Shown here in pieces: positions 1,980 through 46,701 of a DNA stretch of 64,000 nucleotides. The notes under the pieces are model-generated. The model saw only the letters and a list, made by a program, of their open reading frames with translations, was not told where the DNA came from and made no database searches. The stretch comes from an archaeon (GTDB lineage Archaea; Nanobdellota; Nanobdellia; Woesearchaeales; SM23-78): NCBI GenBank assembly GCA_043801165.1, contig JAZDMG010000007.1, positions 134,155 through 198,154 on the forward strand. The letters run 5' to 3'. Position 1 is the stretch's first letter, and each line of letters starts with the position of its first letter. A program made the translations under genes and the position numbers.

Positions 1980-2094
1980 GCCACGGTCGCTTAGCCTGGT
2001 ATAGCGCAGACAGAAGAAGGAATCCTTCTTTTGGCGTAAGATGGGTAATCCTGTTCTCGTACGAGAATCCTCGGTTCAAATCCGAGCCGTGGCG
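1980..2094 (+). tRNA. Intron-containing tRNA, tentatively Thr(GGU)-like; isotype not secure
   Basis: Acceptor GCCACGG (1980-1986) pairs with CCGTGGC (2087-2093); discriminator G2094. D arm is GCT-TAGCCTGGTAT-AGC. T arm is CTCGG-TTCAAAT-CCGAG (2070-2086). Sixty-three nt lie between position 26 and the T stem where about 22 are expected. Best hand solution: anticodon stem CAG (2007-2009) + GA (2040-2041) pairs with TCCTG (2049-2053), loop TGGGTAA (2042-2048), giving a 30-nt insert at 29/30 (2010-2039) with a 10-bp internal hairpin (2011-2033). TTCTCGTACGAGAATC (2054-2069) is either a long variable arm or a variable loop plus an 11-nt insert. Confidence 0.75.
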
Positions 2095-2161
2095 CTCAGC
2101 GCAGCGAGCGCCAGACGGCTCGGGCCAGAAACGCAGTGTTTCTGAGCCCCGGGCCGTGGCG
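2095..2161 (+). other. Structured tRNA trailer ending in a 9-nt duplicate of the tRNA 3' end
   Basis: GCCGTGGCG occurs at 2086-2094 and again at 2153-2161. Between the copies are two hairpins: GGCGCTC/GAGCGCC (2091-2097 / 2106-2112) and CAGAAAC/GTTTCTG (2126-2132 / 2138-2144). Confidence 0.5.
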
Positions 2162-2182
2162 TAATACTCTTTAGAAGAACCT

Positions 2183-2632
2183 TTGAAGCTGATTGATATG
2201 TGGAGCCTGACCCAAGCCTTGATATTTGTGTCATCAGCTCTTCTGATAACAGTGGTCTGGGTGAAGGTCAGCGGGATCTACAAATACCGAGGGAAAAATT
2301 ATTATGTTTTTGGACTCAATCTTTTTCCATTGGTCTCATGGACCCTCGGCCTGGTGCTGATGAGGATTCTTTACGACGCCATCGACCATCCTTACAAATT
2401 CATCATCATCTGCTTTTGCTATTGGCTTATCCTGCCCTCACTAGAATATGTTGGCTATCATTGCTTCGGCATGCGCTTGACCTGCGATTACCCTGGCCTG
2501 TGGAAATCTGACCTGATGCATGCACCTGCCTATTCCAAGGCTTATTATTTATTAATCGGGCCAGCTTATCTCCTCATGACCAATGGCTTAATTATTGAGC
2601 TTGTGAAGATGGGCCTATTGACAGGAGCTTGA
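2183..2632 (+). CDS. Hypothetical multi-pass membrane protein
   Basis: 149-aa ORF with several hydrophobic segments. It starts at TTG 2183; ATG 2198 (MWSLTQ...) is an alternative start. No motif recognised. Confidence 0.5.
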   Translation: MKLIDMWSLTQALIFVSSALLITVVWVKVSGIYKYRGKNYYVFGLNLFPLVSWTLGLVLMRILYDAIDHPYKFIIICFCYWLILPSLEYVGYHCFGMRLTCDYPGLWKSDLMHAPAYSKAYYLLIGPAYLLMTNGLIIELVKMGLLTGA

Positions 2633-3716: not shown

Positions 3717-3804
3717 ATCAGAAAACTATCCGTTCTCGTTCTTCAGAAGAGGATTATTAACGTAACCTTTTTAAACAACCGTGGATAACTCGAGGGATAC
3801 CAAT

Positions 3805-4000
3805 AGCGGGGTAGGGCAGAACGCGTCTATCCCAAAAGATTAGGCGAGTGCCCAACTAGGAGTGCCCGTCGAATGGATAAGAAAAGTCTTATCTGTGCGG
3901 AAGGCTCATAAAAGAGAAACACTCTTAGAGAGACCCGGAGGTCGGTGGTTCAAATACAACATGTTCGGAAGAACTGTTGATGAAAGTCCACCCCCCGCTA
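3805..4000 (+). tRNA. Initiator tRNA-Met (CAU) interrupted by four putative introns
   Basis: AGCGGGG (3805-3811) pairs with CCCCGCT (3993-3999), giving A1:U72; discriminator A4000. Anticodon loop is CTCATA (3905-3910) + A3933, with CAT at 3907-3909. Anticodon stem is TCG (3869-3871) + GG (3903-3904) pairing with CCCGG (3934-3938). Variable loop is AGGTC. T arm is GGTGG-TTCAAAT (3944-3955) with CCACC at 3988-3992. D stem is GGGC (3814-3817) / GCCC (3864-3867). Removing the inserts gives a 77-nt cloverleaf. Confidence 0.8.
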
Positions 4001-4574
4001 TTGTTTTTTTTCTTGAGGGTTTTTTAGTGAAAGCATCCAATCCATTCATCTTTCTAATGTTTAAATACCAGGAGCCATCACAATTTGGGCCTGAAAGCCT
4101 GGAATGTATATCTATTGAGTCTAACATCTCCTTGGCATCTTTTAATCCTTTTTGGTTCATAGACTTAATGCGAATCGTGTTTCTTCCTTTTGGAAGATAA
4201 CCTTCGTCATGAGAAAAGCTTTTAATCCACTCCAGTTTAATCGATTTTTCAGCTGTTTTTATAAGCGAAGGGATTCTCCATTCCCGAGTGCCATATTTAT
4301 TAAAGCTGAGAAGAACTTTTGCAATCCTTATGCTTTTAACAACAACTTTTTGGTGTTGCGGAAAATAACTCGTCTTAACCCCAAAAAGTGCATTCATGTC
4401 TTTTCTAAAAGAATCTATTAGGTCTTTATTTGAATTGAAGTAGCATATCTCAGCCCTATTTTTACGGTCTTTTTCTGAAGTCTTGTATGAATATAGACCA
4501 CCATCTCCACAAAGATGAGCGTGAATCCTAGCGAACAACGCCAGTCTCTCTCCAGAAAACGTAATCAGGTCCAT
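3906..4574 (-). CDS. LAGLIDADG homing endonuclease (two-motif type)
   Basis: 222 aa with LFARIHAHLCGDGGLY and EWIKSFSHDEGYL, the two LAGLIDADG-type motifs. The last 95 nt of the ORF run antisense through the 3' part of the tRNA-iMet gene. Confidence 0.8.
   Translation of the reverse strand: MDLITFSGERLALFARIHAHLCGDGGLYSYKTSEKDRKNRAEICYFNSNKDLIDSFRKDMNALFGVKTSYFPQHQKVVVKSIRIAKVLLSFNKYGTREWRIPSLIKTAEKSIKLEWIKSFSHDEGYLPKGRNTIRIKSMNQKGLKDAKEMLDSIDIHSRLSGPNCDGSWYLNIRKMNGLDAFTKKPSRKKTIAGGGLSSTVLPNMLYLNHRPPGLSKSVSLL
4001..4016 (+). terminator. Oligo-T tract after the tRNA
   Basis: ttgtttttttttcttg follows the discriminator base directly. Archaeal terminators are T-tracts. Confidence 0.5.
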
Positions 4575-13923: not shown

Positions 13924-14337
13924 ATGACCCGATACTATATCGATGCCTGCGTCTGGAGAGACTACTTCGAGGATAGGCGTGACAATCTCAGGCCATTGGG
14001 AGAATGGGCATTCCAGCTGCTGAGGAAGATAGTCGATGAAGAGGATGTTGTTGTTATCAGCGATAACCTGCTCAACGAGTTCAGGAAATATTATGATGAG
14101 GAAAAGATCATCAGGATGCTCAGCATAATTCCGGAAGAGCTAATCCTCAGGGTGAATGATGAAAGCCGGCAGCTGCTAGAAGCCAGGGAGCTGAGCAAGA
14201 AGTTCAGCATACACCGGTCAGATGCGTTGCATCTGGCCCTGGCATTGCTTAATGATGCGGTGCTAGTGACTAGAGATGCTCATTTCAAGGAGCTGAAGAA
14301 TGAGTATGATATCTGTGCGCCGGAAGAACTAATCTAA
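13924..14337 (+). CDS. PIN-domain toxin (VapC-like)
   Basis: MTRYYIDACVWRDYFED... with late-domain acidic residues (SDALHLALA, TRDAHF). Paralogue of 25976..26401. Confidence 0.75.
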   Translation: MTRYYIDACVWRDYFEDRRDNLRPLGEWAFQLLRKIVDEEDVVVISDNLLNEFRKYYDEEKIIRMLSIIPEELILRVNDESRQLLEARELSKKFSIHRSDALHLALALLNDAVLVTRDAHFKELKNEYDICAPEELI

Positions 14338-25716: not shown

Positions 25717-25998
25717 ATGGATATCATCACCATCAGGTTCCAGGAAGACATATTGAAGAAGATAGACCAAAGCATCGTAAACCATAACTTCAACTCCAGG
25801 ACTGAATTCATAAGGGAGGCTGTCAGGGACAAATTAGCAGGCCTCAGCAAGGAAGAGGCGATAGACGCTTTCCTGAGCCTGAGAGGAAAGCTCAAGGGCA
25901 GGACCAAGCCTGAAGATGATGAAAAGCTCAAATGGGCGGCAAGCAGGGAGCTGATGGCAGAATTGGATAAGCGTTTCAAGAGACCTTCTCAGGCCTAG
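25717..25998 (+). CDS. CopG/RHH-family protein (antitoxin-like)
   Basis: MDIITIRFQEDILKKIDQSIVNHNFNSRTEFIREAVRDKL. Paralogue of 14329..14592. Confidence 0.7.
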   Translation: MDIITIRFQEDILKKIDQSIVNHNFNSRTEFIREAVRDKLAGLSKEEAIDAFLSLRGKLKGRTKPEDDEKLKWAASRELMAELDKRFKRPSQA

Positions 25999-26401
25999 AG
26001 CTCTCGCAGATGTCAGAAAGAGCGTGGATGACGTGCTTATCCTGGGAGATCAGCACCGCTCCATGGTTTCTTGCATGGATCGCGTTGAGGCAGTCGTTGT
26101 AAGGGATTTTTCTCTTCAGGGCAAGCTCTCTTGCTTCAACATCCTCTTCCTCAGTTATCTCTATCCTGCTGAGTTTTCCCATGTGCCCGAGAAGATTGAG
26201 AAGCTCATCTATCTCTTCATGAGAATACCTTAATCTTAGCTCAATTATCAATACCTTTGAAAAGAGGATGACGTTTTTCTTTTTCAGTATCTTCACAAAG
26301 AATTCATACGCATAGCTCCCCAAAGGCCTTCCAACTAAGCTTATCCTATCCTCGTAGAAGTCTCTCCAGATGCAGGCATCGACAATATATTTCTGGCTCA
26401 T
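25976..26401 (-). CDS. PIN-domain toxin (VapC-like)
   Basis: MSQKYIVDACIWRDFYEDR... from ATG 26401. Paralogue of 13924..14337. Confidence 0.75.
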   Translation of the reverse strand: MSQKYIVDACIWRDFYEDRISLVGRPLGSYAYEFFVKILKKKNVILFSKVLIIELRLRYSHEEIDELLNLLGHMGKLSRIEITEEEDVEARELALKRKIPYNDCLNAIHARNHGAVLISQDKHVIHALSDICESSRPEKVS

Positions 26402-26488
26402 GGATTGATTTAATGATAACCTAATAATAAACTGCACTCAAAAAAAATCACAATAATTGCGAAGAGAACACAATCCTTTCGTCTTTCA

Positions 26489-27630: not shown

Positions 27631-28068
27631 CTACCGCTTAGAACCAGTCCTTTTCTCCTTGAGGATGATCAAGAGCTCTTCTGGCTTGATTATCCTTATC
27701 CCGGAGTATTCTTTCACCTTCAATAGGTGCTTGTCATTGCTTATCACGTAATCGACTTTGCCTGCCAGTGCGCATTCCAGGATCTTATTGTCATCAGGGT
27801 CTTCCTTCACGACGTCCAGCCTTGTTTCCGGCCTGACGATTGTAGATATGGACTCTATCTTCTCAACAGTCCTGTTCATTTCCAGACCTTTGCCTCTTAT
27901 CTTGTCCTTTATCTCTGGGTAATCCAGCACTTTCCTGAAATCATCAAGTATTTCCGCAGACAATACCAGCTCTGCCTCGTCGTTTTCTATCATCCTGAGT
28001 ACCTTATCAGAGTCTCCCGACCAGAATGTTGAAGAGACCAGTATGTTGACGTCAGCCGTTATTCGCAT
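27631..28068 (-). CDS. PIN-domain toxin
   Basis: 145 aa. ITADVNILVSS... and DDNKILECA...VISNDKHLL are PIN acidic motifs. Confidence 0.75.
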   Translation of the reverse strand: MRITADVNILVSSTFWSGDSDKVLRMIENDEAELVLSAEILDDFRKVLDYPEIKDKIRGKGLEMNRTVEKIESISTIVRPETRLDVVKEDPDDNKILECALAGKVDYVISNDKHLLKVKEYSGIRIIKPEELLIILKEKRTGSKR

Positions 28069-46299: not shown

Positions 46300-46701
46300 A
46301 TGGATGAGAAAAACAAGAAGAAGCTCATACTCGACACCAACTTCCTGCTGATACCTGGGCAGTTCATGGTGGACATATTCACAGAGCTCGAGAAGGTGAT
46401 GCAGGAGCCCTATGAGCTCTGCATGGTGGAGAAGAGCCTTGACGAGCTCAAAAAATTGACTTTGACAGGCAAGGAAAAGGACCGTTTCGCGGCAAAACTG
46501 GCTGTCGTCCTGATAGGACAGAAAGACTTAAAAAGGCTTCCTTGTTCCAAGGGGGATAATAGCGTAGATGACATTATAGTCAGCTATGCAGGCAAAGATA
46601 CTTTCGTGGCCACAGAGGACAGGATCCTGAGGAGACGTCTCAAGGAGAAGGGCTCAGGGGTCATCGGGCTGCGCCAGGGAAAGTATCTGGTGGTGATATG
46701 A
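46300..46701 (+). CDS. Fcf1-like PIN-domain protein
   Basis: LILDTNFLL...VATEDRILRRRL. It sits directly upstream of rpoE', as in many archaea. Confidence 0.7.
   Translation: MDEKNKKKLILDTNFLLIPGQFMVDIFTELEKVMQEPYELCMVEKSLDELKKLTLTGKEKDRFAAKLAVVLIGQKDLKRLPCSKGDNSVDDIIVSYAGKDTFVATEDRILRRRLKEKGSGVIGLRQGKYLVVI

Follow-up and report, generated by a model that had tools for sequence, protein, structure and literature searches.

The stretch analysed here, 64,000 nt of contig JAZDMG010000007.1 (NCBI GenBank assembly GCA_043801165.1, positions 134,155 to 198,154 of the forward strand; called the window below, and numbered from its first letter), belongs to a Woesearchaeota-like DPANN archaeon and has a G+C content of 45%. 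At 3805-4000 (+) it hosts the parts of an initiator tRNA-Met gene, separated by four inserts (Table 1). The acceptor strands AGCGGGG (3805-3811) and CCCCGCT (3993-3999) pair at the two ends of the locus, the discriminator is A4000, and CCA is not encoded. Exons of 15, 16, 8, 22 and 14 nt add up to a 75-mer (AGCGGGGTAGGGCAGCTAGGAGTGCCCGTCGGGCTCATAACCCGGAGGTCGGTGGTTCAAATCCACCCCCCGCTA), which is called tRNA-Met(CAT) by ARAGORN, and for which the cloverleaf is the minimum-free-energy fold (-35.9 kcal/mol). The product is marked as an initiator by the A1:U72 pair and by the three consecutive G:C pairs G29-G31:C39-C41; the anticodon CAU (CAT in DNA) lies at 3907-3909, within exon 3. The spliced product is near-identical (64-75 of 75 positions) to AGCGGGG...CCCCGCUA-type genes found at more than 100 archaeal loci. 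A preliminary description of the locus had proposed that an initiator cloverleaf emerges when four inserts are removed, and had recognized the same identity elements. Both proposals hold, the former by the register of the splicing motifs, the ARAGORN call and the fold; the mature RNA is 75 nt long, rather than 77 nt as then deduced.

Table 1. Coordinates of the features of the window discussed in the text
Feature	Positions	Strand	Description
Exon 1	3805-3819	+	tRNA 1-15: 5' acceptor strand, U8, A9, GGGC 5' D-stem strand, A14, G15
Intron 1	3820-3855	+	36 nt, D loop, 15/16; central helix 4/4
Exon 2	3856-3871	+	tRNA 16-29: remaining D loop, 3' D-stem strand, G26, U27-G29
Intron 2	3872-3902	+	31 nt, 29/30, 5' anticodon-stem strand; central helix 4/4
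Exon 3	3903-3910	+	tRNA 30-37: G30, G31, C32, U33, C34, A35, U36, A37
Intron 3	3911-3932	+	22 nt, canonical 37/38; relaxed motif, central helix 3/4
Exon 4	3933-3954	+	tRNA 38-59: 3' anticodon-stem strand, AGGUC variable loop, GGUGG 5' T-stem strand, UUCAAA T loop
Intron 4	3955-3986	+	32 nt, T loop, 59/60; central helix 4/4, outer helix = T stem 5/5
Exon 5	3987-4000	+	tRNA 60-73: U60, CCACC 3' T-stem strand, CCCCGCU 3' acceptor strand, A73
Putative promoter	3759-3775	+	B-recognition-element (BRE)-like AACGTAACC (3759-3767) and TATA-like TTTTTAAA (3768-3775)
Oligo-T tracts	4001-4025	+	T8 (4004-4011), T6 (4020-4025)
LAGLIDADG gene	3906-4574	-	I-DmoI-like, double motif; convergent with the tRNA gene; Pfam LAGLIDADG_3, E = 1.3e-5
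Open reading frame	3862-4200	+	112 aa, traverses the tRNA gene on the same strand
tRNA-like gene	1980-2094	+	spliced product of 85 nt
Intron of tRNA-like gene	2010-2039	+	30 nt, 29/30; strict motif, central helix 4/4, 10-bp inner helix
Segment with repeats	2095-2160	+	GCGCAG and CCGTGGCG around a GC-rich hairpin
PIN-domain gene	13924-14337	+	
PIN-domain gene	25976-26437	-	
PIN-domain gene	27631-28068	-	
PIN-domain gene	46300-46701	+	

Archaeal tRNA introns are bounded by a motif termed bulge-helix-bulge (BHB), in which a 4-bp helix separates two 3-nt bulges, and cuts occur after the second nucleotide of each bulge. Helices are abbreviated here as H (central), h (outer) and h' (inner). The BHB register fits all four inserts, with 4/4, 4/4, 3/4 and 4/4 pairs in H; inner helices measure 5-10 bp, and outer helices 2, 2, 2 (5 once intron 2 is removed) and 5 bp in BHB 1 to 4, respectively. 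In BHB 1, H results from the pairing of GGGC (3814-3817) to GCCC (3850-3853), the bulges are AGA and AAC, and the inner hairpin spans 3821-3849. BHB 2 features CCGT (3866-3869) paired to GCGG (3897-3900), bulges CGA and AAG, and a perfect 10-bp h' (10/10) at 3873-3896. BHB 4 features TTCA (3949-3952) paired to TGAA (3981-3984), bulges AAT and AGT, and the inner hairpin CAACA.GTTC/GAAC.TGTTG. BHB 3 is of the relaxed type: H is CTC/GAG with an A35-A mismatch, the bulges are UAA and AGA, and the inner hairpin is AAGAG/CTCTT. The hairpins formerly noticed within each insert are thus present, and correspond to the inner helices of the motifs. Strict BHBs are infrequent on the + strand of the window, as they occur at about 2.4e-4 of the (p,q) junction pairs (940 candidates in about 3.8 million pairs), yet they are present at three of the four required junctions. 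Since strict motifs are so rare, the finding of three strict and one relaxed BHB exactly at the junctions that restore the cloverleaf is not due to chance. The check for BHB or relaxed motifs suggested in the preliminary description has therefore a positive outcome at all junctions.

The insert coordinates first assigned to sites 29/30 and 37/38 fit the BHB register. The fourth insert had been placed at 3956-3987, between residues 60 and 61; the mature product does not change, but the insert has to be moved by one nucleotide, to site 59/60, because only in that register a 4-bp TTCA/TGAA helix is found between two 3-nt bulges. The gap between GGGC (3814-3817) and GCCC (3864-3867) measures 46 nt, and hosts an insert formerly estimated at about 34 nt. 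Its length is exactly 36 nt, as set by the BHB register and by comparison with the orthologue L076, in which the D arm (GGGCAGCTAGGAGTGCCC) is uninterrupted. The D-loop junctions had been regarded as ambiguous because of short repeats. The direct repeat GAGTGCCC is real. Its copy within the intron (GCCC, 3850-3853) imitates the 3' D-stem strand and pairs with GGGC at 3814-3817. As this copy forms the central helix of BHB 1, the repeat is explained, and the boundaries are settled by register and orthologue.

L076 is the nearest relative found with a contig (dihydrouridine synthase (Dus), HtpX and RNase HII are 84%, 90% and 87% identical, respectively). Its initiator gene is syntenic, exons match the window product at 75/75 positions (exon 1 corresponding to L076 positions 1-15), and introns are found only at 37/38 and 59/60. 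The D loop has the normal size of 10 nt, and the D arm and the anticodon stem are continuous, with exactly the predicted sequence. The comparison of orthologous loci, also advised in the preliminary description, thus fixes independently the junctions of introns 1 and 2. One may envisage that the introns are fewer or differently bounded, for example that the D-loop insert is retained as an expanded D arm, or that introns 2 and 3 are a single unit. The 37/38 junction is formally ambiguous by 1 nt, and BHB 2 and BHB 3 share residues 3904-3905, as would suit such an arrangement. It is hardly compatible with the D loop and the anticodon stem of L076, and excision of 3872-3932 in one piece would delete the anticodon. 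Moreover, genes of the L085 type feature introns 1-3 and an uninterrupted T arm, and L105 features introns 1 and 2 only, which argues that inserts are independent units. We consider these alternative boundaries very improbable, and hold to four separate introns.

Distinct homologous introns were aligned by their junctions, and pairs were counted along with register-shift controls. At site 15/16 (35 distinct introns) H is paired in 99% of cases, h' in 86% and h in 34%, the latter being mostly unpaired; 3-6 pair types are found per position, and a shift of the register lowers pairing to 27-54%. At site 29/30 (n=9) pairing is 100% in H, 97% in h' and 75% in h, and the 3' end TGCGGAA is conserved. 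At site 59/60 (n=74, from many archaeal phyla) the corresponding values are 92%, 83% and 98%. Introns at site 37/38 (n=16) are paired at 69% in H and 67% in h', and the first H pair is usually missing. Shifting the 3' partner by 1-3 nt reduces pairing to 19-69%. Compensatory changes are numerous, with up to six pair types per position in BHB helices. According to the alignments, the BHB helices at 15/16, 29/30 and 59/60 have been kept through many such changes; the motif at 37/38 is more relaxed, and its support is weaker.

The gene escapes standard detection. In the raw DNA of the whole 64 kb no tRNA was identified by ARAGORN (default and intron modes) or by Rfam (gathering threshold and E <= 10), and ARAGORN run under relaxed settings returned only absurd, kilobase-sized introns. 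As a control, ARAGORN detects where expected the uninterrupted initiator genes of loci L124 and L128, and misses all the interrupted ones. Genomes of this lineage would accordingly appear to lack an initiator tRNA, an essential gene. Kaneta et al. (2018, PMC5829648) had predicted unidentified disrupted genes in DPANN and Asgard archaea, as implied in DPANN by incomplete tRNA sets, and hidden genes of this sort match that prediction. The exons are colinear, on one strand and within 196 nt, unlike those of split or permuted tRNA genes. The 112-aa open reading frame (ORF) running through the tRNA gene is judged a by-product of the sequence, not a gene.

A string fitting the BRE and TATA boxes, aacgtaaCCTTTTTAAA, precedes the mature 5' end by 30-46 nt, and is found at the same distance from the initiator tRNA in L085, L096, L100, L119 and L120. 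By the known layout of archaeal promoters it is a putative promoter. A T-rich tract follows the gene in most of the relatives compared, and the oligo-T tracts of the window likely act as an archaeal transcription terminator. According to what is established on archaeal tRNA splicing, transcription from this promoter would end at the oligo-T tract, and in the resulting precursor of about 200 nt a bulge of 3 nt, a helix of 4 bp and a second bulge of 3 nt would form at every exon-intron junction. The tRNA splicing endonuclease EndA would cut after the second nucleotide of every bulge, the five exons would be joined by a RtcB-type ligase, and the four introns would be freed, probably as circles. 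RNase P and RNase Z would trim the ends, and CCA would be added by the CCA-adding enzyme. BHB 1, 2 and 4 could coexist in the primary transcript, BHB 1 pairing via the intronic copy of the 3' D-stem strand, and BHB 2 via the real one. BHB 3 would be completed only after intron 2 leaves, unless cut as a relaxed motif. Nucleotides 3904-3905 are common to BHB 3 and to the outer helix of BHB 2, and the two motifs compete for them; after excision of introns 1 and 2, the anticodon stem and a canonical BHB for intron 3 are found in the minimum-free-energy fold. The overlap and this fold make an ordered removal plausible.

The unspliced 196-mer folds with z = -5.9 relative to shuffled sequences, and acceptor stem, T stem and inner hairpins are all found in the fold. 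A tract of exon 2 (CUAGGAGUG, 3856-3864) is complementary over 9 bp to a tract of intron 3 (CACUCUUAG, 3920-3928). This helix occurs in the minimum-free-energy fold of the precursor, as a competitor of the BHB 3 inner hairpin; the pairing could be fortuitous, or could order splicing. As the gene is made of five exons, the shortest of 8 nt, and motifs overlap, its transcript would be a demanding substrate for a DPANN splicing endonuclease.

Some data weigh against a functional gene with four introns. The outer helices of BHB 1 and BHB 2 are just 2 bp long, and H is imperfect in intron 3 (3/4 pairs). The precursor has its minimum at -78.2 kcal/mol, in a partly different fold, and structures in which all BHBs are explicitly imposed reach -53 to -56 kcal/mol. 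The 28 ORFs of the window scanned against Pfam include no EndA gene, and splicing and expression of the locus are surmised from archaeal tRNA splicing at large. It might be argued, on this basis, that this copy of the gene is decaying, or silent, and has suffered insertions, and that a working initiator tRNA is encoded elsewhere. The contig measures about 237 kb, of which the window covers 64 kb; no second initiator copy is found within it, but an uninterrupted one may be located outside. The imperfect helix of intron 3 would suit a pseudogene, and odd tRNA genes do exist in this DNA, as the one at 1980-2094 has an aberrant anticodon loop. Decay is however difficult to reconcile with exons fully identical to those of the orthologue, with four inserts all in BHB register and covarying across relatives, and with a promoter conserved in relatives and an oligo-T tract at the end of the gene. 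The syntenic position is that of the only initiator gene found in relatives, and an exact cloverleaf would not be recovered by taking out inserts that had landed at random. A pseudogene is thus improbable. We conclude, with a probability of roughly 90%, that 3805-4000 is a genuine initiator tRNA-Met gene, made of five exons and four BHB introns.

Initiator genes of similar make-up were found in many archaea. A scan for the T-loop intron pattern matched 71 GTDB species genomes (L001-L071), distributed among Nitrososphaerota, Desulfurococcales, Sulfolobales, Micrarchaeota, Woesearchaeota, Nanoarchaeota, Aenigmarchaeota, Bathyarchaeia, Altiarchaeales and the Asgard Njordarchaeum. Many of these loci host three introns, at about 29-32, 37-39 and 59-61. 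The presence of the 59/60 intron across so many phyla suggests either great age or horizontal spread. A scan for the D-loop intron pattern matched 42 metagenome contigs, in which neighbouring genes, where comparable, resemble the DPANN-type genes of the window. Initiator genes in metagenome-assembled genomes (MAGs) of Desulfurococcales and Sulfolobales have nearly identical exons and introns at the same three sites, but lack the one at 15/16. From these distributions, the D-loop intron appears to be an additional, DPANN-associated element, superimposed on the 29/30, 37/38 and 59/60 sites that recur in Sulfolobales/Desulfurococcales MAGs.

Introns were counted at 103 well-aligned loci, all preselected for the presence of a D-loop or a T-loop intron. 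One intron is found in 38 genes, two in 26, three in 32, four in six, and five in one. The metagenome contig L108 has four introns, located as in the window; each central helix is 4/4, and the product is tRNA-Met by ARAGORN. L080 (NCBI GCA_018819305.1, Dus 62% identical) also hosts four introns, at 29/30, 37/38, about 45/46 and 59/60. Four introns, at sites that differ in part from those of the window, are found in L120 and L019 too. In L120 (JGI Ga0209705_10197936) introns 1-3 are as in the window, and the fourth is located between T stem and T loop, at about 53/54. Both this intron and intron 4 of the window contain ACAACATG, which hints at intron sliding or relocation. L099 (JGI Ga0209610_1016758, about 2111-2326 (-)) is 216 nt long and has five introns with all central helices 4/4; its spliced product of 74 nt is tRNA-Met by ARAGORN. 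L126 (NCBI GCA_053532875.1, JAIYOD010000012.1, 3069-3263 (-)), 195 nt long, has about five inserts. Strict BHBs are found only at some of its junctions, and the five-intron reading is not counted as established.

According to the literature (Fujishima and Kanai 2014, PMC4033280; tRNAscan-SE 2.0 paper 2021, PMC8450103), an archaeal tRNA gene has no more than three introns, in agreement with the limit given in the preliminary description. The limit is outdated by the four-intron genes of Asgard archaea (Valentin-Alvarado et al. 2024, PMC11291895), and by other four-intron initiator genes, and one well-supported five-intron gene, in public DPANN sequences. In Asgard archaea 92-95% of the tRNA genes are interrupted, and over half contain multiple introns; four introns are listed for Freya Arg-TCT and Ile2-CAT (4/4) in Supplementary Data 4, while for Freya Leu-GAG and Atabeya-2 Trp-CCA three are reported by tRNAscan-SE and four by R2DT (PMC11291895). 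The same table includes the Atabeyarchaeota_2 initiator gene (470904-470714), 191 nt long and therefore close in size to the window gene, with three listed introns totalling 75 nt. As surmised from the table, the remaining 116 nt probably hide a further intron, about 40 nt long and located 5', in the D-arm part. No initiator tRNA row is given for Freyarchaeia. The Asgard cases (Atabeyarchaeia, Freyarchaeia) pertain to a different phylum, and four introns are not listed for any initiator tRNA (PMC11291895). We found no paper describing four- or five-intron DPANN initiator tRNA genes in the literature searched, which is not the whole literature. Four introns exceed the textbook number, but not what already sits, mostly unannotated, in public data.

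The best known multi-intron tRNA genes are those of Thermoproteales (Pyrobaculum, Caldivirga, Thermofilum; Sugahara 2008, as cited in PMC4033280 and PMC8450103). As in the window, short BHB introns are located at 37/38 and at non-canonical sites, several introns may interrupt one gene and be removed in order, and genes are missed by standard tRNA finders. In contrast, the maximum stated for Thermoproteales is three introns, and hosts are hyperthermophilic crenarchaea, rather than a DPANN archaeon with 45% G+C. The enzymes would also differ, as according to the literature EndA is alpha4 with the L3 loop in the DPANN lineage, and (alpha-beta)2 with the Crenarchaea-specific loop (CSL) in Thermoproteales. 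Kaneta et al. (2018, PMC5829648) relate DPANN variants of the former type to a higher incidence of disrupted tRNA genes. As the window gene and its relatives with four and five introns show, the three-intron limit fails outside the classic Thermoproteales set.

Intron content varies widely among related loci. In the L085 group introns 2 and 3 are near-identical to those of the window, intron 1 is homologous, and the T arm is uninterrupted. These organisms are more distant (Dus 65%, SMC 71% identical) than L076, which lacks introns 1 and 2, but has in common with the window the T arm and the 59/60 intron. By sequence, the window gene looks like the union of the two intron sets. Since intron sets differ between close relatives, gain and loss must be fast; as content does not track host relatedness, introns are frequently and precisely lost, or gained, or alleles are exchanged. 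Close relatives with identical exons and two, three or four introns provide a clean natural system in which the gain and loss of BHB introns may be studied.

The region downstream of the gene hosts, in convergent orientation, an ORF encoding a LAGLIDADG protein. Its conserved part ends near 4000, the 3' end of the tRNA; the last 32 codons or so, which overlap exon 5, intron 4 and the T arm in antisense, are not conserved. The family (denominated A) comprises 78 homologues, mostly of 182-200 aa and nearly all unannotated. They share the motifs ELARIHAHLCGDG, in which D24 is invariant, and LEWIKAFxxDEGY. The AlphaFold model of the window protein (predicted local distance difference test, pLDDT, 93.7) matches I-DmoI with a template modelling (TM) score of 0.67-0.74. 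The resemblance to I-DmoI came from this fold search, as a sequence search of the PDB gave nothing significant. The two motifs, the acidic residues and the predicted alpha-beta-beta-alpha-beta-beta-alpha double-domain fold are those of LAGLIDADG endonucleases. I-DmoI is the LAGLIDADG endonuclease of an archaeal rRNA BHB intron, and the two proteins have in common a monomeric two-motif fold, an archaeal host and the physical association to a gene with BHB introns. They differ because I-DmoI lies inside the rRNA intron, whereas the window gene is free-standing, just 3' of the tRNA gene and outside all four introns, and members of its family also adjoin intron-less initiator genes. It is thus not encoded within an intron or intein.

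I-DmoI-like LAGLIDADG genes of two families, A and B, are found directly 3' of initiator genes, either co-directional or convergent, and sometimes overlap the tRNA 3' end. Family A members are present in the window, in L036, L008, L039, L050 and in L124-L133; family B members in L080, L085, L023, L108, L089, L007, L094, L082, L123, L095, L107, L099 and L054. At 15 of the 96 loci with enough flanking sequence, a gene of either family lies downstream of the initiator gene, at a distance of 300 nt at most; none lies upstream (0/87). Five family A homologues were chosen only for the length of their contigs, with no preselection for introns, and 5/5 adjoin an initiator gene convergently. These initiator genes have 0, 0, 1, 2 and about 5 inserts. 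As the linkage is kept without intron preselection, and includes two intron-less genes, it concerns the initiator gene itself rather than the introns. The idea that introns, notably that at 59/60, shield the tRNA gene from the adjoining endonuclease was rejected in its strong form for the same reason, as 2/5 of the adjoining genes have none.

The proximity of the endonuclease gene, and the hairpin found in each insert, could also lead one to regard the inserts as small mobile elements, similar to miniature inverted-repeat transposable elements (MITEs), or as footprints of a homing endonuclease, in either case unrelated to RNA splicing. Copies of the inserts, and similarity among the four, were sought as a sign of intron transposition. 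None has a copy elsewhere in the window, and they are dissimilar from each other. Conservation within them coincides exactly with the BHB strands paired to exon sequences, and initiator genes linked to LAGLIDADG genes may lack inserts altogether (L124, L128). This origin is hardly credible, and the inserts are best viewed as spliced introns.

Four loci (window, L076, L080 and L085) have a conserved neighbourhood, in which the initiator gene is followed by a variable slot and by the Dus, HtpX, RNase HII and, further on, SMC genes. Homologues of the Dus protein are labelled by NCBI as Woesearchaeota, Nanoarchaeota or Pacearchaeota. The slot is occupied by a family A gene in the window, a family B gene in L080 and L085, and other genes in L076. 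This pattern is compatible with selfish endonuclease genes that replace one another at a homing site; a domesticated function is equally conceivable. A bolder and rather unlikely scenario is that the LAGLIDADG genes of two unrelated families are free-standing homing endonucleases targeting the initiator tRNA locus, which co-convert the tRNA gene upon repair and move whole intron-bearing alleles between lineages. Such a mechanism would explain the mosaic intron sets that do not track host relatedness, and would offer the introns of archaeal tRNAs a way to spread at the DNA level; how they spread is a long-standing question. The recurrent LAGLIDADG neighbour is a testable lead in this respect, and the most interesting one; endonuclease linkage and mosaic intron sets are the parts most worth following.

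Orthologues were also sought through the UPF0047 gene located upstream of the tRNA gene. Synteny is not kept on that side, and the Dus side was used instead. Relatives with a 92%-identical UPF0047 protein (L072, L073) have a permease gene downstream in place of the tRNA; those at 51% identity (L074, L075) have unrelated called genes, and no tRNA scan was made there.

A second tRNA-like gene, at 1980-2094, was identified by a seeded local search, and is interrupted by one strict BHB intron. The body of the spliced 85-mer is of class II, with a long variable arm and G73, and is similar to the tRNA-Ser(GCU) genes found near the initiator gene of relatives. The anticodon loop UGGGUAA (G33, anticodon GGU) is aberrant; ARAGORN calls Thr(ggt), and Rfam finds nothing at the gene. 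This could point to a pseudogene, or to something out of the ordinary. The end of its first exon, GCGCAG, and its 3' acceptor strand, CCGTGGCG, recur just downstream, around a GC-rich hairpin, in a segment that may be a duplication remnant. The repeated CCGTGGCG hinted at a 66-nt intron at the 3' end of the gene, which was discarded, as no BHB is formed in any register. A window-wide enumeration of strict BHBs, with ARAGORN run on the spliced combinations, gave no match; owing to the relaxed intron 3, not even the initiator gene is picked up in this way.

Four genes encoding PIN-domain proteins (Pfam PIN, PIN_3, PIN_9) are scattered in the 64 kb. They probably encode the toxins of toxin-antitoxin pairs, at a density that is high for a small DPANN genome.

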